From positions 558,001 to 622,000 of the forward strand of contig OY253677.1 in the NCBI GenBank assembly GCA_958009085.1: DNA of 64,000 nucleotides, read 5' to 3'. Shown here piece after piece: positions 1,024-50,885 of the stretch. Position 1 is the stretch's first letter, and each line of letters begins with the position of its first letter. Origin of the DNA: Protoeuglena noctilucae. Its lineage: Eukaryota. The notes under the pieces were generated by a model. That model worked only from the letters and a program-made list of their open reading frames with translations. It searched no databases and was not told where the DNA came from. A program made the translations under genes and the position numbers.

Positions 1024-2326
1024 ATGGGGCCGGTGAGCGCCGCGCGGGAGCGGATCCGCGCCGCGGCGACGGGCGCATCCGCTACCTGTCTATCGATCCA
1101 AGTGCTCCCCTTGCGCTCGTGGCATCTCGACGCGTCTTCTGCCCGCAGGCCCAGGCGGCCCCGCCTCCGAAGGCGTCCAGCGGCGACTTCCCCGCGAAAG
1201 GTGCGAGCGCATCCGGCGGCATCGTTCTTGCTTTCCATGCGATGCGCGCGCGGGTGGGTAAGCCAGGCAAAGGCGCGGATCCCCTGCAGGCGGGCGATTC
1301 CTGGACCTCGACGATGGGGCGTTTGTGGAGAAGCGCGCCCCTTTCCTCAGCAGGAAGAACTGGCCGAGTCTGCTCGCCACGCTGGGCCTCGCGCTCGTCG
1401 CGTCGTTCGTCCTGCGCGCCCTGAGCGGTGAGCGCCGCGCTGCTGGCCCCCGTGCGTGCCCCTCACACACCCCTCACACACCCCCGGCTTTGCCCGGCGG
1501 CTACGCGGCACGGCGACCCACGTCCCGCCCCGCCGCTCCCGCAGCTAGCGTCGCGAGCAAGGACCGGGACGTCTTCTTGGTCCCCGACGCGCCCGGCATC
1601 GAGCTGCACTGGCTGCGGCACAACGCGACGAGCCCATGTCACCTCAAAGTCCTGGTGGCCCAGACGGTCGAGCCGGGCCCTTTCAAGGCGTTGCTGGACG
1701 CCAGCCTGCCCGTGAACCAGGCGTACGCGCAGGAGCGTGGGTACGACTACGTTTCGCTGACGGGCGTGGCGTACGGGGGCCTCAACCGCATGGCGACGTT
1801 CAACAAGATCTTCCTGCTGGACATGGTGGAGCGCATGGGGCAGTACGACGTGGTCTTCTACCTCGACGCGGACGCCATGGTGGTCAACCCGGGGCTGCGG
1901 GTCGAGGAGGTCGCTCCCCCATGGGCGCTCCTCACCGCCAGCCGCGGGCGCAAGGACCGGCGGTGGGACGTGAACGCGGGGGTGTTTCTGTGGAACCTGC
2001 GGCACCCGCGGTCGCACGAGTTGCTGGGGAAGTGGAAGGACGCGGCGGTGGCGGGAATCCAAAGGGGGGCGGCTGACGACCAGAAGTTGCTCCAGCGGCT
2101 GCTGCGGAATCTGAGCCGGGCCGAGCAGCAGCTTATGCTGCGCACGTACATGGGCGCCGAGTACAACTACATTAACTACGACGGGCCCAACGTGCGTCAC
2201 TTCCTTCGCATGACGTCGTCGAAGGACTGGTCGGCGAGCACGGTAACTGACCGCGTCGCCGCCATGCAACGCGTCATCGAGGAGCTCCATCTCAAGCAAC
2301 TGCCGGCAGCCCCGCGGCGGTGTTGA
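1024..2326 (+). CDS. Type II membrane glycosyltransferase, GT34/MNN10-GMA12-like (multi-exon)
   Basis: Phase-consistent exons ~1024-1032, 1149-1200, 1290-1427, 1545-2326. N-terminal TM (SLLATLGLALVASFVL), DxD motif YLDADAMVVN, NAGVFLW and DDQ motifs. Confidence 0.75.
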
Positions 2327-2512
2327 CAGAACCTCCTTGCTGCCCAGCGCGTGCGACGCGCGTGCGACGCACGTGCGGCATGCGAGGTTCGTGCGAGGCC
2401 TGCCATGGTGCCCTTCCGATTGTTGCGTTACTACTCCAAACTACGCTCCATTCCTTGCGTTTCCTAGGTTCGCAGCAGTCTCATTTCAATACCTAGCAGT
2501 GCTGACCCGACC

Positions 2513-5500
2513 TCACGACTTGCCCGCGCCAGGCACCCCCGACCTCCTCCCAGGCACAATGCTCGACGCAAAGCCCCTGCGCAAGACACAGGAAGCAAAA
2601 CAGGTTACTCTCGCATCCGCGTTGCTCCCACATCACCCTCGGCTGAGCTCCGGGAGGGTGGTGCCCGCATTGGGCGACAGTGCGAACGTCGGTTGCGATG
2701 TCACACGACTAGAGGCATGGCACACGCGTGACGAGAACGCGCGAGTGGGCACACACAGCACAGTCCCACCATCTCCCTCGCCTGCTGTCCGCGAAGTAGC
2801 TCTTGGTGCCGTCCTGTGCGTCGGTGGTGCGCGCGTTGGGGTTGACGAGCTCGATGCCTTGCACGGGGGTGAAGGCCAGCGACGTGGCGATGCCGGACTT
2901 GGCACCCGCGCCCGCCTTGAACGCCGGCGTCTTCTCCACCTTGCGCTGGATCGCCTTGGTGACCTTGACCCGCTTCTCGGCAGCCATCGCCCTGCGGAGG
3001 CACGGCAGCGGCAGTGGGCGGTCGACACCGTCAGGGCAGCAAGGGGTGACACGGCGGAGGCGCAATGGATAGTGCCAGGCGTGGGGCTTACAAAGGCACA
3101 CACGCATGCTTACACGCTCGCTCACACACTAACACACGCTTGCGTACACGCTTGCGCATGCGCTCGCACACACGCTCGCTCACACATTTGCGTTCCCCAC
3201 CGTCCCCCACGCACGCGCAGTGCAGTGTGCAGCACAGTGAAGTGTGCAGCACAATGCAGTGTGCAGCACAGCACGGCGTCTCTCACCGGATGCGCCCCGA
3301 CCCGTCCTTGCCCAGCATGCCCACCCCCACGAGCTCATCCCCGTCCAGGATCTCGTCCTCGGCCTCGTTGAACTTGACGCGGTTGGCCAGCTTCTGGATC
3401 TCTGCGATCATCGGCAGTGCACGGGGGCATTGGGAGCGTGAACAGGGACTTGTGAAACTCTGCGGTGATCGGCAGCATGCGAGGGCATGGCAGGCGTGAA
3501 CGGGTGCGGAGGGCAGCGACAGGCACGGTGTCATGTGGGATGGCTGCGTATGTCGTCATCAACCCGATGGTACAGCTTTGCCCAATGGTACAGCGTTGCC
3601 CAACAGTACAGCTTACAGGCCCGATGGCGCAGCTCGTCTCCTCACCCGTCAGTCCGTATCGCTCCTTCATCTTCCGGTACCGCTTGCCGCCCCTCCGCTT
3701 GCGCGCGTCCGCGTCCGGCCGCGGCAGCGGCTTGACGATCTTGGCGGGCGGCGGCTCCTGCCACTTCTCAATCTGCGATGGGGCGAGAGGGGGCGTTGGA
3801 AGCGTGTAAGTCAACTGCAACATCCTAGTCAATTAGGCATCCATGAAGCAAGCACGACCCTAAGCACTTTCACACGCTCCCACCACCCAAACGCCTATCA
3901 CCTTGCCAAGCACCCACTCCCAGCACGCAGCACCTTGCCAAGCACCCACTCTTAGCACTTACTCTTCACCCCCCAGCATTCGTCACCTTGGCGAGCACCG
4001 CGGCCCGCATCTGCCTCCCCGTCTCCCCCGTGGGGTCCTGCCCGTAGGCGTCTGTGCGTGCCAGGAGCGTGCACTTCATGGCGATCAGCTTGGCCGCCTT
4101 CATCCGCCACGACTTGGGCGTCTTCTGAACAACCTCGCAGTCGTACACGAATCCCTGGTGGGGCTCTGCGGGGCAATGCATGAGTCAATGTTTGGGCAAC
4201 GGAGCTTGGTAAGGAGCGAGGCGAGAGGCGGGGAAAGTGGCAGGGCGAGGGGTGCGGAGCAGGGCGAGGGGTGAGGTGTCATCATAGCAAGGGGCGTGCT
4301 TGAAAGGGTGGCGAGGTGCAAGTCACACCTGTCTGCTTGGAGGACATGCCGATGACGACCTTGCGCTTCTGCCCCAGCACCTGGACGTTGCATGCGGGGA
4401 TCTTGGAGAGCGGCACGAGCCCACCTGCCACGCCCATCAGCTTGGCGGCGACGGTGGAGCCCTGGGAGGGGGAGAGAGGGTCGGCGTCACGCACGGCCTG
4501 ACAGCTGACAATCAAGCCTTGGGCTGTTTATGTGAGCCATGGCCACGCGATGAAGCCCCAGTGAGCCGTGCAGGTACCCTTCTTACCGAGCGCGGGCCAC
4601 AGCTCACCAGGAGTACGGACAGGTTGGGCGCCATGAGGTTCATCCGCGCCTCGACCAGCTTCAGAATGGCCTCCTTGTCGGCCTCGAGCTGCGAGAAGAT
4701 TCAAAAGAGATGAGTTTACGTTTCACTAAAAGCACAGCACGACAGCACCACGCGCCATGTGCGCTCAAGCGATGCCGAAGGCCCGGGGCTCGTGACAGAG
4801 CCCAAATCGATCCAACGCTTTCTCACGAATTTCAACCCAAACACAAACACAAACACACACAACAACACACCTGTAGGATGTGGTCTGCCGCCTCCATGAC
4901 CACCTGGAGCTGCTGCGCGTCGAGGGGCTTGCCGACGGTCGTGGTGGCCGTCACCGTCACCACCATGATCATCGAGTGGCTCAGCACCGGCTCCAAATTG
5001 AGCTTCGTCAGGTCCTCCTCGTTCCCAATCGCCTTCACTGCGGCAGCGCAGCCAGGGACCCGGTCGGCAGCGCCCATAATTGTACTGTACTGTCCACGCA
5101 CGCCCGTGAGACGGCGCACACGACATCGATGAGTGTGATCAGTACAAGTACAACGGGCGTGCGCGACGCGGCTGACCAGTCAAGTGCCCCGCGAGTGAAA
5201 CACCCACCAGTTAGCACGCCCCACCGCACCTGTGCGTGCGTAGTCCAGGGGATGGTGGATGAGACTCTCGAGCTCAGGGAATTTGGACCGATACTTGTCC
5301 TTCAGGAAACCATGGACGGCAGCGACCTCGTTCTCGATGTCGACAGCCAGGGCGTTGCACTCGACCAGCAGCTTGTATGTCGGGTCCTCGTCACCCTGCC
5401 ATGCCCTGCGGAGTGCGCAACTGGGGCGCGCGACCATCACAACAGATGGGCAGAGAGGTGGCCGTAGCTGACCCGCATGGGAGCCGCAGACAGATCACGG

Positions 5501-5834
5501 ACTCGCCTGGGAAGGTCCCCCTCGGCCCGCGCAAGCTCCTCGCGCACTTGGGAAATGACGCGCTGGTAGCGCTCGGAAGACGCCAGCTTGGCCACGTCCG
5601 AAAGCTTCTCGTAGGAAACGCGCACCTGCTCCCGAGTGCCCTGCCCCTCGTCCACCTGCGGAAGAGGCCGGCGGACCGCGGGGTCGGGCGGCGGCGGTCG
5701 GCAGAGCCCGCAGAGCGCGCGACAGCGACGTCGGCCCCTCCGATCACCTCCACCTCCTCCAGCTCTTCCCGGACGACCTCGTCATCGGACAAGTCGTTCA
5801 AGTCCTCGAGGAAACTCTCTGCCAGCGTCGCCAT
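2513..5834 (-). CDS. PRP31: U4/U6.U5 tri-snRNP protein Prp31 (multi-exon)
   Basis: MATLAESFLEDL start; Nop-domain motifs KYRSKFPELESLI, VAAKLMGVAGGL, IPACNVQVLG; RKRRGGKRYRKMKERY; SGIATSLAFTPVQGIELVNP. Last intron 2577-2781 has a GC donor. Confidence 0.95.
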
Positions 5835-6420
5835 GGCGCCCCGCCTTCACCCTGCGGCCTCGACGAAACAGCACGCGCGTTCTGCGACCCAGATGTGCGC
5901 GTCAGGGCGCTTGAACGCCCTCCCACTTCTTCTGTAGGTAGATTAACTTTGACATAATCCATGGGCCATAGCAAATCCGGAGATGCCATCCCCGTCGGGT
6001 CGCTCAACTCACCGTGACGCCCCACGGGGCTCGCCAGCGCCCGCGATGAGCGCGGCCCCCTAGCTGGCGTCGCCAGGACCGAGAACGTAGGCACTGCAAG
6101 CCAACCGAGGGTGTCCCGCTCCGGCGCGCCGAGCTGGGGCCGGGAGGATGCGTCGCGTGGCTCGCGCAGAGCTGGACGCCTCAGGACAGCGCTATATGAC
6201 ACAGGTCCGCGTTCATGTCGTGCTTCCCAAACACCGAAGCCAAAGCGAGCGACTGAAGCAGCTTTGGGCCCCAATCCAGGCGAACCGGCGAACTTGCTGC
6301 CTGAGGTCAGGTCAGACATAGCGCCACCGCCGCGACGGCCGCGATGAGGCCCGCCCCTGCGTGCCCACTGCCCTTTCTGCGCTCCCTGGGTCCCTCCCGT
6401 CCGAACCGAGCGGCCGAACC

Positions 6421-7324
6421 ATGGTGCGTTCCGCGCGCCGGCCGCCGAGCGTCCGCGCAAAGCGCGGGGCCTCCCCGCGGCCCTGCGCCAGCGCTCACGA
6501 CTGGATGTATTTGCCGCATGTCGTGTCCGCTCGCGGATGCGGTCGCGGGGGAGGCCTCCCTTCCTGGCGGGCTGGGTTGGCCCGCCCCGCCCATGCCCGG
6601 TCGCGCCGCGTCGCCCGTCTGCTTTCTGGGGCCTTGGAGTGCAAGGGCGGACCGGCGGTGTCCCGCGGGTCGCCGTTGCTGAGCAGCAGCGCCCTGTTCT
6701 CGCACGCAGGGGCGCGTCCGCACCAAGACGGTGAAGCGGTCCTCCCGCCACCTCATCGAGAGGTACTACAACAAGCTCACGCAGGACTTTGACACGAACA
6801 AGCGCGTCATCGACGAGGTGGCTGTCGTGCAGACCAAGGCGAGTGCCCCGCGCCGCCCGGGCCCCGCAGCGCGAGCGTCCCGCGCCCCCTGCGCTGCGTT
6901 CTCGTCTCTGGTGCCCGGCGACAGCTCGCGCCCTCCCTCGCCGCAGCGCCTGCGGAACAAGATCGCGGGCTTCACCACGCACCTGATGAAGCGCATCCAG
7001 CGCGGCCCCGTGCGCGGCATCTCCCTGAAGCTGCAGGAGGAGGAGCGCGAGAGGCGCCTGGACTTCCTGCCGGAGACCTCCGCCATCCAGACGGAGAACA
7101 TCGAGGTGCGGCAGCCGCGGCGGGGGCCTGGCTCGGAAGAGGGCCCGCGCGCGACGCGGGCGGTGGGCGGGCTCCATCTGTGTATGTGGTTCACTCATCG
7201 CCTCTCGGGCGCGCAGGTGGACCGCGACACGCTGGATATGCTCCGCGCCATGAACATGGGGTCGCTGCCCGGTGTCGAGAACCAGCGCTTCCGGGGCGCC
7301 TTCCGCCGTCGGCAGCAGGAGTGA
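6421..7324 (+). CDS. RPS17: 40S ribosomal protein S17 (eS17), 4 exons
   Basis: ATG-only first exon, then GRVRTKTVK...[37 protein letters not shown]. Intron 6839-6946 is GC-AG. Confidence 0.97.
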
Positions 7325-40042: not shown

Positions 40043-41075
40043 AAAAAGCCCGCAGCCGATCGGAGCGGACACGTCGACACCTGGTGCGAGACGCGGGTGC
40101 CTCTCCACCTAGGTTTCCTTGCGGGCACCCCGAGACGAGCGCCGACGGGCAGCCGGCTGTCCCGCGTGGCCGAACCCGGGCTTTAGGACCCTGGAGGGCC
40201 GGCGACCTTGAACTCCTGCACGTCCAGGCGATACCGCAATGTGAAGTACTCACCACGTCCCGCGCATGCGCGAGCAGGCCACCCACACCATGACAGGAGT
40301 GCCATCCAGCAGACCCGGTGGGGCGCACCTTGCCGTGGCAGCCTATCACGCCCCCCGCCAGCAGAAGCTGCACAGCTGCGCCATGACAGAGCGATGCATG
40401 CAGAGGGCGCCATGGGATACGCTGGCGAGCCCTCACCTGTTGCGGCCTCACCTGGGACTTACCTGCGCGGCGGCTGACACTGCCCCTGGGACGCCCTCCC
40501 ACGCGGACCTGCCATGCGGACCCTCACGGCAGGTCACGCGGCAGCCGGGAAGCCTCCCCACTCGAACCTGCCGCCATCTGCATGGGCGCGGACGAGCCGG
40601 TCCCCCCGCTCCCCCAGCAGAGCAGCAAGGATGATGATGATGTGCAGTTCAATAGCTGAGGGTGCTGAGGTCCATCAGGATACTCGCGGCACGAGCTAGG
40701 CCCGCGCGACAGGGGCGCCTTTCCCCGGGGCTGCCGCACCCCGGGGGTTCCATTATCGCAGTGCATATGGCACTTGGCCCGCCCCCGCTAGGTCCCCCCA
40801 CCCGAAGGCTATGGGGCCGCCGCCCCGGGCTCCAGCGCCCCTAGCCCCTTCGCCGAACCGCCGCCCCTGCCGGGACGAGCAACCGCAGGATGCCTCGCGA
40901 GCGGGCCCCTGGGAACTAACACAACAACGAAGCAACGAAGCAGAGACAAGCCCCCATGCCGCGGCGCAGAGCACTTTCGCCCCATGCAGCAAGGAATCCC
41001 TGTTTTGACTGACAATAAAAAAAAAAAAAAAAAAAAAAAGCCCGCGGCGGGATCGGAGCTCGACACGTCAGCACC
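40043..41075 (-). mobile_element. Fragmented repeat-element copy (downstream region of the LINE-like unit)
   Basis: 40112-40630 is a direct repeat of ~44952-45474, near-identical from ~40250. 40631-40745 resembles 44289-44390. Shared junction motif at ~40059 and ~41052; A-run 41017-41039. Confidence 0.8.
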
Positions 41076-41237
41076 AGAGTTTTGCCTACCCCTCGGCCAT
41101 GAGCCGGCCGGCTGCGGCCATCTGCGGAGACAGGCCCCCCCCCCCAAGACCACTGGCAAGCCAGGCAGGCAAACGCTGCCTTACTGTTTTGTGGTTTATA
41201 TAGCGTCATTTTCGCGCGAAGCGGCTCGGTCGCCTTG

Positions 41238-41309
41238 GGCTCTGTCGTCCAGAGGTTAGGACGCCTGGCTTTGAACCAGGAAACCTGGGTTCGATTCCCA
41301 GCGGGGCTA
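41238..41309 (+). tRNA. tRNA-Gln (anticodon TTG)
   Basis: Cloverleaf GGCTCTG/CGGGGCT, D arm GTCC..GGAC, CCTGG-CTTTGAA-CCAGG, CTGGG-TTCGATT-CCCAG. Upstream TATA-like sequence ~41196. Confidence 0.93.
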
Positions 41310-41330
41310 GGTGTGTGCGATATTGTGCCC

Positions 41331-41336
41331 TTTTTT
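41331..41336 (+). terminator. Pol III oligo-T terminator of tRNA-Gln
   Basis: T6 run ~21 nt downstream of the tRNA 3' end. Confidence 0.65.
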
Positions 41337-41408
41337 GCGCGGATGATTAGCGATCCAACACAGCGGGAAAAGCATCCCGGCAGTGTGCGAACCTGCAGCG
41401 GCAAAAGG

Positions 41409-41520
41409 TGGGGTAGGAGGGGATCGAACCCTCGACCTCAGGATATCTCATCGCCGCGCGGGATTGAACCCACGTCGTTTGCTATGAGACCTGCGCTACT
41501 ACCTACTGAGCTACCACCCC
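41409..41520 (-). tRNA. Elongator tRNA-Met (CAT) with a ~38-nt intron at 37/38
   Basis: GGGGTGG/CTACCCC acceptor stem, CAGGT-CTCATA[intron]A-TCCTG, GAGGG-TTCGATC-CCCTC, then TTTT. Resembles plant intron-containing elongator tRNA-Met. Confidence 0.9.
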
Positions 41521-42617
41521 ATATGGAGCACATTGCTCCTTTGGGGGACACCTCACGTCGAATACTGGTTGCAGCGCAACTAGGTGGGCCAGAGTCGGAG
41601 GAGCTGCCTCGTGAAAGCAGGCGGCCGCTCGATCAAATCTTTGGCCGGACCCATTTTTCATGTTTTTTTCCGGGGCCAGCCCGCGGTTTAACATGGCGCT
41701 TAATATGGCCAGGAGCCGTGGCCTCCGAGGTGCTGGTGGCGTCGTGGTGCGGGCGGCTGTGGGGCACGCGCTGGGAGCGGCTGCTGCACCTTCGCTTGGA
41801 CGACACGACGTCGGCCAAGGACCCCGTCAAAAGGGTAATAATCCAGGTTTGCAAGGCGCTGGAAGGGCTGGGCGTGCCCGGCGCGCCTGTGCCTCCCCGT
41901 GCCAATGCCAGCCGTGTGGTGCTTGAGGGCGTAGCTGAGCAGCTCGTGGGTATCCTGATTGTATGGGACCCTTGGCAGGGCCTGGTTCTGTCCCCTGCGG
42001 CCTGCGGCTCCCTCCCTGCTCACCTCCGCTCCCTTGCCGCAGGCCAGGTTCCCCCCCGGCAAGGGCGGAGCACGCGCTGGCGGCTTACTGCGCGCAGCAG
42101 GACTCTCAACTCCTCCCCCGTCCTTCCCGCCCCCAGGCCGCGCCGGTCGCTGTGCGCCCTGCCCCCGAGCCCGCGTGGTGGGCGGAGCTCAACCTGCCCC
42201 TTGTCAACCCCTCCACGCAGTGGGTCCTCGAGCCTCATCGGCGCCCCACTGAAGTGCCCGTCCCCATTCCGCTTAAGCAGTACTCGGTCGGACATGCGGT
42301 GGGGGTGGCCTTCGACCGGGCCACCATCACCTCGCGGCTCGGCCGCAAGGTGGAGCAGTGGTCCCGGGCCGGGGCGCTCGGGGAGGCCCAGGACGGGCCG
42401 GACGGGGTCACGGCGGCGGGCATGCATGCCGCTCTCAAGACCATCAACGCTCTCCCCCTGTCTCCGCAGATGCACGAGGCGCTGTGGCTGACGCTGGCCG
42501 ACGCGCGCGCCACCGCATCGCACTGCTACTGGCTCGACCTCACCACGTGCCCCCTCCTCCGCAGGGACGGCGAGCAGTGCTCCCACGAGGACACGGTCGC
42601 TCACGCCTTCTGGGCCT
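41427..42617. repeat. Left arm of a 1191-bp inverted duplication (right arm 45758-46948)
   Basis: Mirror-image ORFs in the track (41963+ / 46412-, 42604- / 45771+); one substitution noticed. Confidence 0.95.
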
Positions 42618-43115
42618 CATCTGGCGCCGCAGGTCGCAGCTGCGGGAGAACTGGCACTGATTCTCCCCGTGAACACCTGCAGGCCTCTATGCTCACCTGG
42701 GCGCCATCGTGGCGGCCGAGGTCCAGGACACACTGGCTGTCACGGAATTAGAGCGCCTGGCCGCACTGCTGGGCAAGCAGGGTCCTGACAGGCTCGTCCT
42801 CGCCCGCGCCGATGGCAGCAGGTTCATGCGGGTGGTCTCCCTGCGGCTGCGTGAGCGGGGCAGGTAGGTGCGAGGCAGGTGCTTGTGAGCGGACACATGT
42901 CGCCCTCTGCACCTTGGCCCAGCTGCGCCTGTCACTGGTTGCCAGGGGGCATGGCAGAGTACCGCGGCAAGGTGCGCCACACCGGGGCCGCCGGATGGCA
43001 GTCCTGTTATGGGGTGGGTAGCCTGCTCGCGCGTGCGCGGGACGTGGTAAGTACCGCACATCTCAATACTCTTTGGATGGGCTGCAGTCCAAGGTCGCCA
43101 GCCCTCCAGGGTCCA
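41963..43115 (+). mobile_element. 5'-truncated, internally deleted LINE-like ORF2 3' fragment plus downstream region
   Basis: Zinc knuckle C..C..EDTVAHAFW broken at 42617; a diverged continuation matches the reverse complement of ~45030-45610. Confidence 0.7.
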
Positions 43116-43119
43116 TGAC

Positions 43120-43690
43120 GCACCACGGCCCGCACTTGCAGCGCCGGGGAGGATGCTGGTCCTGGGGATGTGTGCCGTGGCTTGCGTGCACGACATGCAC
43201 GCGTTCTCTCGCGGCAAGGCTGAGCAGGAGAGGCACGTGCAAGTCCCTCGTGCTGCAGCAGCTCTTGGCTGGCAACGGGGGCCCGGGTGCACTGCAAGCT
43301 CAGCTCATGAGGAAGCGTGTGTTTGGCAGGAGCTTGCTGAGGTTCCCTGCCCACCGTGTGACGGCAGGCGGCGCGACGCCCCTTGCGTCCGACGTCCGGG
43401 CCACTGTGTCGCGGCCAGCACTCAGGAGTGTGACAGAAAGGCAGGCGCTCCTCGGCCTCGTCAATCACGTCAGCCCCTGTCTCGGTCCTGCCTGACCCCA
43501 AGCTGCCCTACGTCGCGTCGGCGGATGCCAGTGAGATGGGCATCGGACCCATGCTGGCTCAGCAGTAGCCGAGGGGATGCGGCGTGCAGCGTCCTCGTCG
43601 CGCAAGTTGGCGCCGACAAAGCGGAAGTGCGTGTAATGCATAGGACCGAGGGGCACTCCGTGGCCGCAGTGCACGCGGTTAAGCCTCTGG
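43120..43690 (+). mobile_element. Degenerate Ty3/gypsy pol relic (RT C-terminus plus RNase H), copy 1
   Basis: VACVHDMHAFS (~VYLDDILIYS), RKRVFGRSLLRFPAHRVT, ALLGLVNH, LPDPKLPY..SADASEMGIG, AAVHAVK; frameshifted. Confidence 0.75.
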
Positions 43691-44288
43691 TTTGAACCAA
43701 CTGAGTTTGAGCAGACCTACTGGGCAGATTTGGGGCCCCTGGCAGAGATGCTGCGATACCCGTCGCAGAGCAGAGCAGAGCAGATGTCGCAGCTTCCGAG
43801 TGGGCCCAGACACGGACGAACAGGTCCAAAATCAACTCCGAGCGGCACGGACGAAGATGGCTGGTGTCGGCTCGCGTCAGAGTATCAGCTAGGGCAACAC
43901 CTGAGTCGGCGTGGGGTTGATCGCCCAGATGGCGCTCCGTAATGACGAGTTGCTACCTGTGCCGGGCCCGCGAGATCCTAGCCAGTGGGGGATTGAAAGC
44001 TTGTTCACTAGAGTACCAGCCAGCTGTTGCGGTCCGCACGCGGAGCAGGTGACCCACACACCCCGGACGTACGTCAGCCATCTGACGGGCCTGCGGGGGC
44101 AAGGAGCTGTCAGGGAGAGGCCAGACCCGTGGCCGTGTCCGCCAGCACCCCCCGCTCCCGCACGTCGGTGAGGGAGCAGACCCACGCGTACGTCTTCTGG
44201 TGCGGTTCTTTGAGGCCCGGAGCAGGCTGGGATTGGGGCTCCGCAGGGACTGGGGAGGCACGCTGGGGCGAGGCCACGAGGCGGGCAC

Positions 44289-46735
44289 GATGATGATGAG
44301 CGATTCAACAGTCGAGGTGTGCTATGACTCTCAGAGCCATGCCTTGCGGAAGAAGTGCCGTCCCCCGGGGCAGCTGGCACCCCGGGGAGGCGGGCACGGG
44401 CGGGGACCGCTGGAACAAATCCAAGGAAGCAGGTCTCGGGGGCATGAACAGCAAGGGTCGACGTCCCGGGCCCACGAGCCAGAGACGCATCTGTGCGCCA
44501 TGTTGAGCTGCGGGCTGCCCCCGGAAAAAAAATAAAAAATCGGAGCCCGACATGTCAGCACCTGGTGCCAGACGCGGGTGCCGCTCACTTCTCTGGACAC
44601 CAACCGTGCCCCGTGAGGAACCACGATCTCGAGCTCGTCATTTCCCGCCGCGGGTGCCGGGCACAGGGGGGCGAACCCCCCCCACTGGCCCCTTGGGAAC
44701 CACACTCCCAGAGTGCGCGGGGGCTTCGCAAAGCGTCCCGGGGGCGGCAGCGTCGTTAGGCCACCTGAACGCGTGCGGTGAAGGCAGCGGCAGCCCCAAG
44801 GGACTGGGGGGACCGGATCTCGGGGACCTGGGTCCCCCGCTCTGTCCCACAAGGGGGCGCCAAAGCCGTACCAACACTCCGAACATGACGTGAAACCCTC
44901 GGCCACCGCCCCCGACTCTGCTAGGCCCCCGCCCGCCAGCGCCCGCCCGAGTTTTCCTTGCGGGCACCCCGGAACGAGCACCGACGGGCAATAACAACTG
45001 TCCCTAGAGACCGAAGCCGGACTTTGGGCCCAGGAGGGCCGGCGACCTTGAACTCCTGCACGTCCAAGAAGCACCGAAAGAACATGTGCAGACTCACCAC
45101 GTCCCGCACATGCGCGAGCAGGCCACCCACACCATGACAGGAGTGCCATCCAGCAGACCCGGTGGGGCGCACCTTGCCGTGGCAGCCTATCACGCCCCCC
45201 GCCAGCAGAAGCTGCACAGCTGCGCCATGACAGAGCGATGCATGCAGAGGGCGCCATGGGATACGCTGGCGAGCCCTCACCTGTTGCGGCCTCACCTGGG
45301 ACTTACCTACGCGGCGGCTGCCACCGCCCCTGGGACACCCTCCCACGCGGACCTGCCATGCGGACCCTCACGGCAGGTCACGCGGCAGCCGGGAAGCCTC
45401 CCCACTCGAACCTGCCGCCATCTGCATGGGCGCGGACGAGCCGGTCCCCCCGCTCCCCCAGCAGAGCAGCAAGGCGCCCTGCCCCAGTGACAGCCAGAGT
45501 GTCTTGGACCTCGGCTGCCACGATGGCGCCAAGCTGGGCATAGAGGCCTGCGGGCGTCGACGGGGAGCGCCAGTTCTCCCAAAGCTCTTGGCGGCGCCTC
45601 CAGATGAGCTTGAAAGCCGCGCCCACGATGAGCGCCCACGAATACTGCGAGAAGTTGCTGGAGGGAGGGGGAACTAGGAGGAACACCGCCCGTGCCGAGA
45701 GGGCCGGGGCCCGCGCGGCCGCCTTAACCGCCTCCCACACCTCCTGGGCCCTGTCACAGGCCCAGAAGGCGTGAGCGACCGTGTCCTCGTGGGAGCACTG
45801 CTCGCCGTCCCTGCGGAGGAGGGGGCACGTGGTGAGGTCGAGCCAGTAGCAGTGCGATGCGGTGGCGCGCGCGTCGGCCAGCGTCAGCCACAGCGCCTCG
45901 TGCATCTGCGGAGACAGGGGGAGAGCGTTGATGGTCTTGAGAGCGGCATGCATGCCCGCCGCCGTGACCCCGTCCGGCCCGTCCTGGGCCTCCCCGAGCG
46001 CCCCGGCCCGGGACCACTGCTCCACCTTGCGGCCGAGCCGCGAGGTGATGGTGGCCCGGTCGAAGGCCACCCCCACCGCATGTCCGACCGAGTACTGCTT
46101 AAGCGGAATGGGGACGGGCACTTCAGTGGGGCGCCGATGAGGCTCGAGGACCCACTGCGTGGAGGGGTTGACAAGGGGCAGGTTGAGCTCCGCCCACCAC
46201 GCGGGCTCGGGGGCAGGGCGCACAGCGACCGGCGCGGCCTGGGGGCGGGAAGGACGGGGGAGGAGTTGAGAGTCCTGCTGCGCGCAGTAAGCCGCCAGCG
46301 CGTGCTCCGCCCTTGCCGGGGGGGAACCTGGCCTGCGGCAAGGGAGCGGAGGTGAGCAGGGAGGGAGCCGCAGGCCGCAGGGGACAGAACCAGGCCCTGC
46401 CAAGGGTCCCATACAATCAGGATACCCACGAGCTGCTCAGCTACGCCCTCAAGCACCACACGGCTGGCATTGGCACGGGGAGGCACAGGCGCGCCGGGCA
46501 CGCCCAGCCCTTCCAGCGCCTTGCAAACCTGGATTATTACCCTTTTGACGGGGTCCTTGGCCGACGTCGTGTCGTCCAAGCGAAGGTGCAGCAGCCGCTC
46601 CCAGCGCGTGCCCCACAGCCGCCCGCACCACGACGCCACCAGCACCTCGGAGGCCACGGCTCCTGGCCATATTAAGCGCCATGTTAAACCGCGGGCTGGC
46701 CCCGGAAAAAAACATGAAAAATGGGTCCGGCCAAA
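44289..46735 (-). mobile_element. Non-LTR retrotransposon (L1/Tx1-like) fragment with zf-RVT CCHC domain (ORF 46412-45378)
   Basis: CPLLRRDGEQCSHEDTVAHAFWACDRAQEVW...KLIWRRR fits the C-terminal zinc knuckle of L1-type ORF2. No RT or endonuclease domain is present. Confidence 0.75.
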
Positions 46736-46948
46736 GATTTGATCGAGCGGCCGCCTGCTTTCACGAGGCAGCTCCTCCGACTCTGGCCCACCTAGTTGCG
46801 CTGCAACCAGTATTCGACGTGAGGTGTCCCCCAAAGGAGCAATGTGCTCCATATGGGGTGGTAGCTCAGTAGGTAGTAGCGCAGGTCTCATAGCAAACGA
46901 CGCGGGTTCAATCCCGCGCGGCGATGAGATATCCTGAGGTCGAGGGTT
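45758..46948. repeat. Right arm of the 1191-bp inverted duplication
   Basis: Reverse complement of 41427-42617. Confidence 0.95.
46855..46948 (+). pseudogene. 3'-truncated tRNA-Met(CAT) copy
   Basis: Matches the 41520 tRNA up to GAGGGTT in the T loop, then unrelated sequence; no 3' T stem or acceptor strand. Confidence 0.9.
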
Positions 46949-47503
46949 TGGTTTGTGATCGGCTCGCCTGGGCAACGAAATCTCGCTGCGTGCCGCCCGC
47001 CATGCAGGCCTCAACAAGCGCAGCCAGCCGCCACCTCAGTGCATGCGCTCACTCACAAAGGCGGCGGGTAGGCGGAGGTGCGGAAGGTGGAGATAGCCAA
47101 ATACAAGTAGAACGGCCTTTGAGTGAATGCGTCGGTGAAGGCACCCTTACGCACACCATGTGAACAGTGTCGGAATGTGGGTCAGGATCCCAGAGCAGTT
47201 GCTGAAATGATGCCTGGAGGTGAGCGTGCCACGCTTTGTCACGCATAGCACGCCCTCCAAGACTCAGCAGATGCCGGGACACCCACTCCGTCTGCTTGCA
47301 GACATAAGGAGGCGTGTGTCGCTGCAGGAGAAACCTGATGACAAGGCGGTATGTGGGGAACATGGAAGTGCGTGCGTCGGCTAGGGCCTGATTCACGTGC
47401 GCTGGGCCCCTGACTGCTCGCTCGTGGGTCACATCCTCTGTGAGAGCTTTACGCTGCCGCCAGGGCCGCGCCTACCAGTGCCTACGCGGCCTCCATGCAT
47501 GCG

Positions 47504-47597
47504 CTTTTCAACAACAATCCTCAGCCACCACTTGCGCGATCTGTCTGCCTCTTTTCAACAACAATCCTCAGCCACCACTTGCGCGATCTGTCTGCCT
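47504..47597. repeat. Perfect 2 x 47-bp tandem duplication
   Basis: CTTTTCAACAACAATCCTCAGCCACCACTTGCGCGATCTGTCTGCCT occurs twice in tandem. Confidence 0.95.
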
Positions 47598-50030: not shown

Positions 50031-50319
50031 CACCGGTCGCTGTGCCCCGCCCCTGCGTACCACACTGGTGGGAGATTCACCGCGTACCGCGCGGTACACG
50101 ATTTTTTTCGCCTGCGGGGGGAACACCGGTGGTACACCGACCGTACGACCATGCACATGCAGCCGATGACACATCCACCTGTCAGCCGTGATGCAGAGGG
50201 CATGGAGCGACACCCCTCACGTGGCTCGGCGCAAGCGGGTCCGTGTTCCCACGGAGCCCCGCGCCAGTCGTCAGTGTCCCACTCTGTCCTCGTCAAACCC
50301 AGCGCCCTGTCCAATGACA

Positions 50320-50885
50320 CACCACGGCCGGCACTTGCAGCGCCAGGGATCGGAGGAGGCTGGTCCTGGGGATGTGTGCCGTGGCTTGCGTGCACGACAT
50401 TCACGCGTACTCCTGCGGCAAGGCTGAGCAAAAGAGGCACGCGAGGGCCGCACTGCAGCAGCTCTTGGCTGGCAAGAGGGGGGTGCACTGTCAGCTGAGG
50501 AAGCGTGTATTTGGCAGGAGCTTGCTGAGGTTCCCTGCCCACCGTGTGACGGCAGGCGGCGCGACGCCCCTCGCGTCCGACGTCCAGGCCACTGTGTCGC
50601 GGCCGGCGCTCCGGGGTGTGACAGGAACGCAGGCGCTCCTCGGCCTCGTCAATCACGTCAGCCCCTGTCTCGGTCCTGCCTGACCCCAAGCTGCCCTACG
50701 TTGTGTCGGCGGATGCCAGTGAGATGGGCATCAAAGCCATGCTGGCTCAGCAGTAGCCGGAGGGGGTGCAACCTGCGGCAATCTTGTTGCGCCATTGGAA
50801 CGGTGGTGTGATGCGTATGACTAGAATGCACTCCATGGCCGTGGTGCACGCGGTTAAGGCATGGCAGCACTATTTGCTTGGGCAA
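50320..50885 (+). mobile_element. Degenerate Ty3/gypsy pol relic (RT plus RNase H), copy 2
   Basis: Diverged direct repeat of 43120-43690; LPDPKLPYVVSADASEMGI and AVVHAVKAWQHYLLG RNase H motifs; in-frame stop. Confidence 0.8.

Follow-up and report, generated by a model that had tools for sequence, protein, structure and literature searches.

Why do fragments of long interspersed nuclear elements (LINEs) pile up beside tRNA genes, facing away from them? The question is raised by a 64,000-nucleotide stretch of the Protoeuglena noctilucae genome (G000:C10:558001-622000, here called the window; assembly of 26.3 Mb in 27 contigs), for which an initial annotation, made from the letters alone, had proposed a retroelement targeted to tRNA genes. 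The window locus consists of two stacks of 5'-truncated retrotransposons lacking long terminal repeats (non-LTR) on the outer flanks of a tail-to-tail gene pair, tRNA-Gln(UUG) on the plus strand and tRNA-Met(CAU) on the minus strand, and in the stacks a LINE family termed A is joined by another, B, and by N1, a non-autonomous partner of B. Our analysis indicates that A and B are two sister L1-type families forming a genome-wide system aimed at RNA polymerase III (Pol III) genes, a reading to which we assign a probability of about 85%. It is directly supported by the protein domains, the target-site duplications (TSDs), the 5' truncation, the side, orientation and distance of insertion, the reuse of one narrow interval, and the sisterhood of the two families.

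The initial annotation had described a shared junction motif near 40059, 41052 and 44540. The motif GGTGCTGACRTGTCGRGCTCCGAT is present exactly at 44539-44562 and 41052-41075 and with four edits at 40059-40081, all on the minus strand, and the three sites are therefore borne out, the one at 40059 as a diverged copy. The motif and its T-tract proved to be the 3' end and tail of the element, at which copies elsewhere stop: the 2.1-kb unit has 45 genome matches, many of which terminate at the motif, which is therefore the 3' end. The accompanying sequence CCGGGG..AGCCCGC..AACATGGCGC, which had been counted as part of the element, was rejected as an element feature, since its three occurrences in 688 kb of element-rich DNA searched are confined to the window locus; it looks like flanking DNA that was duplicated locally. 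It borders the copy at 44539-46666 on both sides with 86% identity, and the simplest, if not certain, reading of this comparison is that it is probably a diverged target duplication of ~46 bp, long and old.

Placement of the two families relative to Pol III genes

Tail patterns were searched genome-wide and their positions compared with those of 47 Pol III-type genes located in the examined regions, a list that omitted genes inside repeats that ARAGORN alone had called (e.g., a tRNA-Leu on C12 and a tRNA-Thr with a long intron on C7). Family A has two kinds of 3' end, which in the sense of its open reading frame (ORF) are poly(T) (A1) and poly(G) (A2). Ten of the 13 A1 tails lie no more than 10.5 kb upstream of a tRNA gene and point away from it, two lie at 27-31 kb in the same stacks past a large insertion, and one is inverted, 166 bp upstream of tRNA-Gly. 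Among the 18 A2 tails, 15 lie within 10.5 kb, one lies at 30 kb, and two have no called gene, one of these with a tRNA-like stretch immediately behind it. Family A as a whole therefore has 28 of its 31 tails in stacks upstream of tRNA genes and pointing away (25 of them within 10.5 kb); the 31 tails represent 21 loci, 19 of which are at called tRNA genes. The random placement and orientation that would have contradicted the initial annotation were not found (A1, 13/13 upstream of tRNA genes, with 12 pointing away and 1 inverted; A2, 16/18), and the divergence from the tRNA gene that it described holds for the A tails at tRNA genes throughout the genome with a single inverted exception (C20:886147).

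Family B gave 43 tail matches, of which 35 follow a Pol III-type gene within 10.5 kb, facing away from it, and one lies at 29 kb. The seven matches without a gene comprise one chance match (C3:1060402, rejected as a B tail), one copy in an element with terminal inverted repeats (TIRs), one inverted piece ending a U3 stack, and four unexplained copies. The chance expectation per oriented tail is at most 4%, even assuming 100 target genes.

The two families take opposite sides of their targets. At lone genes, A was counted 9 times upstream and never downstream, and B/N1 never upstream and 19 times downstream (Fisher p=1.4e-7; tally made by hand, excluding the C22 tRNA-Arg, whose partner is tRNA-like and upstream of which lies an old B fragment), and at tail-to-tail pairs both A and B/N1 occupy the outer flanks. 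From the side of the genes, 15 of 18 dispersed nuclear tRNA genes, chosen by Rfam score alone, have an element copy within 250 bp (63 of 452 candidates were scored). These data demonstrate that, throughout the genome, the two sister LINE families are associated with Pol III genes in a manner specific as to side and orientation.

Stack heads at which ARAGORN found no tRNA provided a partial prediction test of this association. Rfam identified U3, 5S and U6 genes and one truncated tRNA there, and a permuted tRNA-Ser(AGA), with the 3' half before the 5' half (L074, G000:C3:13416-13513), which both Rfam and ARAGORN missed, heads one B stack. At seven loci, five of them with unexplained copies, Rfam in E-value mode returned weak matches to miRNA models only. 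The U3 match is to the Plant_U3 model, and in plants and protists U3 is reported to be transcribed by Pol III (PMC2784804). The assembly also has CCCTAA telomere arrays and two tRNA-rich organelle-like contigs; together with the Plant_U3 match, the tRNA-Met intron and the permuted tRNA gene, these features suggest an alga of the green lineage.

The TSDs, proposed as a check in the initial annotation, measure 8-17 bp at the 18 insertions listed. Gene-proximal TSDs of A start 134-165 bp from the mature tRNA (first-match gaps, 80-226 bp), and A inserts about 135-190 bp upstream in the orientation opposite to the gene; B/N1 lies about 34-195 bp downstream in the same orientation, as judged from first-match gaps at lone tRNA genes. 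At a tRNA-Asn gene on C18, the TSDs of three successive A insertions start 134, 143 and 151 bp from the gene, and every insertion falls within the junction left by the one before it. Therefore, the site is set by the distance to the gene and not by local sequence.

The alternative that survives best, improbable as we consider it, is that there is no tether: insertion would be fairly broad or directed to open chromatin, and in a haploid genome dense with genes purifying selection would spare only the copies beside tRNA genes. The few copies away from Pol III genes (C20:818282, C5:249170, C21, C23, C12:372143) would fit this explanation, as would the unrelated large TIR elements in the same stacks, which indicate that the flanks tolerate insertions. 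However, survival alone fails to explain the orientation (1 inverted among 29 A tails at tRNA genes), the family-specific sides (9/0 vs. 0/19) and the reuse of one 20-bp interval (134/143/151 bp). Somewhat less probable still is self-targeting on the model of Zepp-like nesting, whereby the elements would insert into earlier copies and the link with tRNA genes would reflect a few founders spread by segmental duplication. Many TSDs do lie inside older copies, and duplications of a gene together with its stack exist (the window tRNA-Met, a C20 tRNA-Ala, a C16 5S gene), but the stacks stand beside tRNA genes of various isotypes, whose flanks are unrelated, on ~18 contigs, as well as at U3, U6 and 5S genes, and new insertions strike any sequence at the set distance, at varied positions of the older element. 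A sequence-specific endonuclease, as modelled by target-specific Tx1 elements, that cuts a motif chancing to flank Pol III genes would suit an L1/Tx1-type element but has hardly any likelihood, since the 18 listed TSDs have no evident common motif and the flanks of the tRNA genes are not conserved past TATA-like boxes. None of the three accounts for side, orientation and distance together.

Several observations weigh against targeting to Pol III genes. No Pol III gene was called behind two of the 31 A tails and seven of the 43 B tail matches; at least one of these seven, at C20:818282, is bounded by a clean TSD in an ordinary site; the A tail at C20:886147 is inverted; and none of six tandem tRNA-Ser/5S units on C24 carries a copy of A, B or N1. 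Tails within one stack are not independent, and the U3, U6, 5S and permuted or truncated tRNA targets were found through stack heads, which makes the gene list partly post hoc. Finally, an AlphaFold model of ORF2 residues 901-1533 of family A, made without an alignment, had a predicted local distance difference test (pLDDT) value of 41 and is uninformative about the fold of the C-terminal half.

Structure and kinship of the families

Family A is an L1-type LINE of 5.85 kb. Its full copy (C7, ~1270-7123, with an 11-bp TSD) has one ORF of 1533 codons, here called ORF2, carrying an endonuclease of the apurinic/apyrimidinic type (APE), a reverse transcriptase (RT) and a Cys/His knuckle. The full-length copies with RT and endonuclease that the initial annotation had recommended looking for are therefore present. 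Pfam recognises Exo_endo_phos (E 2.8e-7) and RVT_1 (E 1.3e-22), and the best relative among solved proteins, human L1 ORF2p (E 3.6e-20, with R2 proteins at 2.5e-11), aligns continuously with residues 119-791. An L1/Tx1-type zf-RVT had also been claimed: the Cys/His motif is there and aligns weakly with its counterpart in human L1 ORF2p, and Pfam zf-RVT (PF13966) gave no match at E<=5. For the C-terminal 550 residues, the score is 0.96 against Atlas clusters of which 16% of the members have zf-RVT, a share of 16-24% being found across the clusters scoring 0.94-0.96.

Many A copies are 5'-truncated. No ORF1 was found in A, in which a leader of ~360 nt has no conserved ATG, although a 5' truncation shared by the copies could hide one. 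Three copies start within ~60 bp of one another, ~330-370 nt ahead of ORF2. At L034:1560-1645, a sequence resembling a branch point, pyrimidine tract and AG directly precedes the A ORF without ATG; a CUG codon would likewise yield a typical endonuclease start. Mismatches between long A copies concentrate at third codon positions (43 vs. 20/17; 76 vs. 32/26), which suggests that A was recently active under selection. The target DNA ahead of the TSDs has no T- or G-run that could template the A tails. We propose no terminal stem-loop for A1, A2 or B, since their folded 3' ends showed no structure exceeding that of shuffled sequences (z -1.24 to 0.0).

Family B, which was turned up by a protein search, is 38% identical to A over the endonuclease-RT (EN-RT) region. 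It is 8.85 kb long and has an extra RNase H (RVT_3, E 1e-12) before the knuckle, a 3' region of ~3 kb and a (CAT)n tail; a separate ORF1 was not recognisable in five long copies, although here too a shared 5' truncation could hide one. N1, the non-autonomous partner of B, is a 780-bp non-coding element that has at least 18 long matches; its 5' end is defined, and its 3' end resembles that of B (83%). Full-length B copies on C6, C15, C18 and C19 are preceded by a short tag of the B 3' end with (CAT)n, which suggests transcription starting in an upstream copy.

A and B are sister families. They are 44% identical in the RT region, all other non-self matches being at most 34%, and form one long branch (SH (Shimodaira-Hasegawa) 100) among the 88 RT rows of a FastTree phylogeny built without curated clade references, 1 of 89 sequences having been dropped for short coverage; their neighbours are unnamed APE-RT elements. 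A metagenome scan returned distant RTs only (22-41% identity) and is uninformative about relatives; a tRNA gene was present at 1 of its 56 loci, in an unrelated AT-rich contig.

Known systems and a proposed mechanism

The comparisons below refer to the accessible parts of the cited sources. The system works like the TRE5 and TRE3 elements of Dictyostelium, to judge by analogy of placement. TRE5 (TRE5-A, -B and -C of D. discoideum) resembles family A as an L1-type element with APE, RT and a zinc finger that inserts upstream of tRNA genes in opposite orientation, and it is also found at 5S genes (PMC5911963). TRE5 differs from A in inserting 40-54 bp upstream and in having a TFIIIB-binding ORF1 and oligo(A) (PMC5911963, PMC3159450), together with A/B/C modules, whereas A inserts about 135-190 bp away with no ORF1 seen and with poly(T) or poly(G). 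Family A therefore does not belong to TRE5 on distance, ORF1 and tail. TRE5-A requires the B box, and its ORF1 binds TFIIIB (PMC3159450).

TRE3 (TRE3-A to -D, D. discoideum) corresponds to B/N1: it inserts 40-150 bp downstream in the same orientation, compared with 34-195 bp for B/N1, for which all 19 lone-gene flanks are downstream. B differs from TRE3 in the RNase H before the knuckle, the ~3-kb 3' region, the (CAT)n tail, and its presence also behind 5S, U6, U3 and a permuted tRNA gene. A 2018 review knows downstream insertion in dictyostelids only (PMC5911963). No TRE sequence was among the 87 RT homologues recovered.

NLTR-A of D. purpureum and NLTR-B of Polysphondylium pallidum are, like B, non-LTR elements with RNase H that target tRNA genes (PMC5006619), but they insert upstream (2-6 bp and 39-64 bp) and RNase H replaces their zinc finger, whereas B inserts downstream and retains the knuckle. 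Plant Ta11 and oomycete L1 elements share with B an L1-type ORF2 plus an (archaea-like) RNase H (PMC5348765); their CCHC motif is upstream of RNase H, whereas that of B is downstream, and the parts of that source covered here mention no Pol III targeting by them. Yeast Ty1, Ty2 and Ty4 likewise insert upstream of several Pol III gene classes at nucleosomal distances within ~1 kb, Ty1 integrase binding Pol III and inserting in nucleosomal DNA (PMC5911963); unlike LINEs, these are LTR elements whose integrase is tethered to the Pol III subunit AC40.

In these sources, Pol III-targeted retrotransposons are tabulated for yeasts (LTR type) and dictyostelids only, and the non-LTR and downstream-targeting types for dictyostelids only (PMC5911963, PMC5006619). 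Our literature search, whose scope did not extend to most subscription journals, Repbase or the genome's own paper, found no report of a Pol III-targeted LINE in algae or plants; the accessible parts of two sources, a review from 2026 on the tRNA genes of photosynthetic organisms (PMC13578239) and the paper on the Auxenochlorella genome (PMC12633428), describe none. Finding in an alga a matched pair, one family upstream and the other downstream, would mean that the TRE5/TRE3 solution has evolved anew in a different supergroup of eukaryotes.

Concerning the mechanism, insertion would proceed by target-primed reverse transcription, as general knowledge of L1-type elements leads us to expect, and the RNA-protein complex of the element may be tethered to TFIIIB, TFIIIC, Pol III or an adjacent positioned nucleosome instead of a DNA sequence. 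Each new copy would be gene-proximal, displacing the older copies outward. The tether may be sited in ORF2, because no ORF1 was seen, and the presence of B at tRNA, 5S, U6 and U3 genes points to a cue common to all Pol III genes. By analogy with the known systems, such a tether may provide the elements with a safe haven. Since A and B are sisters, A/B chimeras could map the determinants of side and distance.

A bolder proposal, which we regard as tentative and somewhat short of an even chance, is that an independently evolved, single-ORF, L1-type sister pair splits both flanks of all Pol III gene classes in a photosynthetic eukaryote, with the EN-RT protein itself targeting, the side having switched as RNase H was acquired or lost or as the C-terminal region changed, and RNA ends rich in U or G, in place of poly(A), serving for priming. 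If so, it would offer a new route to safe-harbour insertion, and stack heads would flag unannotated Pol III genes. A single-ORF LINE beside tRNA genes is a candidate safe-harbour insertion tool for algae, and the stacks have already revealed the permuted tRNA gene missed by standard tools.

The window locus and neighbouring features

The features of the window locus are collected in Table 1, together with the TIR elements found elsewhere in the genome.

Table 1. Annotated features of the locus (window coordinates) and the large TIR elements (contig coordinates)
Feature	Position	Strand	Basis or similarity
Old family-A copy with internal deletion, 3' untranslated region (UTR), 3' end and short T tail (40043-40047); outermost in the tRNA-Gln stack	40043..40630	-	87-88% to full A
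N1, 5'-truncated, (CAT)n tail	40631..40987	-	97.7% to 790-bp N1 copy on C13
Young family-A stub, 3' end and poly(T); 5' junction 162 bp upstream of tRNA-Gln	41017..41075	-	100% to last 44 bp of A reference
tRNA-Gln(UUG)	41238..41309	+	ARAGORN; Rfam 65.7 bits; TATA-like box ~40 bp upstream
tRNA-Met(CAU), ~40-nt intron	41409..41520	-	Rfam 47.6 bits; ARAGORN with introns
Left arm of 1191-bp inverted duplication	41427..42617	+	1 mismatch vs. right arm
Probable duplicated target flank: T-tract and CCGGGG..AACATGGCGC	41650..41699	+	86% over 50 bp to 44495-44543
Family-A copy, 5'-truncated, pointing away from tRNA-Met, cut by rearrangement; ORF2 residues ~1023-1407	41709..42617	+	93% to full A; tblastn
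Older diverged family-A fragments	42616..43115	+	77-81% to A
Repeat, second copy at 50309-50858	43111..43683	+	84% between copies; translated sequence resembles decayed pol
Old family-A-like fragment	44019..44280	-	77% nt; tblastn to ORF2 residues 1011-1090
Family-B 3' end, 98 bp, (CAT)n tail, 11-bp TSD	44289..44387	-	96% to B
T tail and 3' copy of probable duplicated target flank	44495..44538	-	Sequence comparison
Family-A copy, 5'-truncated, 2128 bp; last ~450 ORF2 codons with Cys/His knuckle, 3' UTR, 3' end	44539..46666	-	92-94% to copies on C4, C5, C7, C8, C12, C20
Right arm of inverted duplication	45758..46948	-	Pairs with left arm
Truncated tRNA-Met duplicate	46857..46948	+	Read from sequence; no Rfam or ARAGORN call
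TIR element (L039/L065/L040)	C8:151670-170947
TIR element (L047/L080/L081/L048)	C6:46078-70108
TIR element (L044/L072/L073/L045)	C19:118205-146410
TIR element	C3:1595291-1613678

The spacing to tRNA-Gln estimated in the initial annotation (~160 bp) agrees with the measured value. That to tRNA-Met (~120 bp) does not: the 5' junction of the element (41709) is 188 bp away, and it is the duplicated flank that begins at ~120-130 bp. The two tRNA-Met cases are indeed one duplication, with inverted arms that differ at a single position, the second gene being cut in the T-loop. The left junction (42617/42618) is bridged by contigs in four of the four public sequencing runs compared and the right junction (46948/46949) by single contigs in runs X2 and X5; with both new junctions bridged, an assembly artefact is unlikely. 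Contig depth across 42559-47533 is ~2.5-3 times that of nearby single-copy DNA in three of the four runs, a hint that strains may differ in the copy number of this block. The repeat at 43111-43683 is presumably a decayed Ty3/gypsy RT-RNase H region, for which a Pfam search was negative.

The intron of tRNA-Met (window 41440-41480) includes a hairpin resembling a T-arm, and a T-loop-like motif, GGTTC(G/A), lies 5-20 nt upstream of the mature 5' end of five tRNA genes (flanks on C6, C7, C15 and C20); these may be remnants of permuted genes or additional B boxes. The duplicated tRNA-Met of the window and a duplicated tRNA-Ala (L092:719-786, C20) both end in the T-loop, and the duplicated 5S gene on C16 lacks its 5' half. 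Many dispersed tRNA genes are also arranged as tail-to-tail pairs. C24 (15.9 kb; L056/L057) has tandem 2.3-3.1-kb units, each with a tRNA-Ser and without A, B or N1, and in the four units of L056 a 5S gene is the tail-to-tail partner. A U6 gene on C12 (L096:5512-5614) has a B-box-like motif ~30 bp past its 3' end; a B box downstream of U6 is also found in budding yeast.

The four TIR elements are ~18-28 kb long, with ends AG..CT and an apparent 4-bp TSD, and they may be Polinton-like viruses. The C8 element has an rve integrase ORF (Pfam E 5e-11) and the C19 element a P-loop ORF. Three of the four sit inside LINE copies flanking tRNA genes, the C3 element being not near a called tRNA gene, and the C19 element carries a full B copy with ~150 bp of flank that is 99% identical to a tRNA-Leu site on C6.

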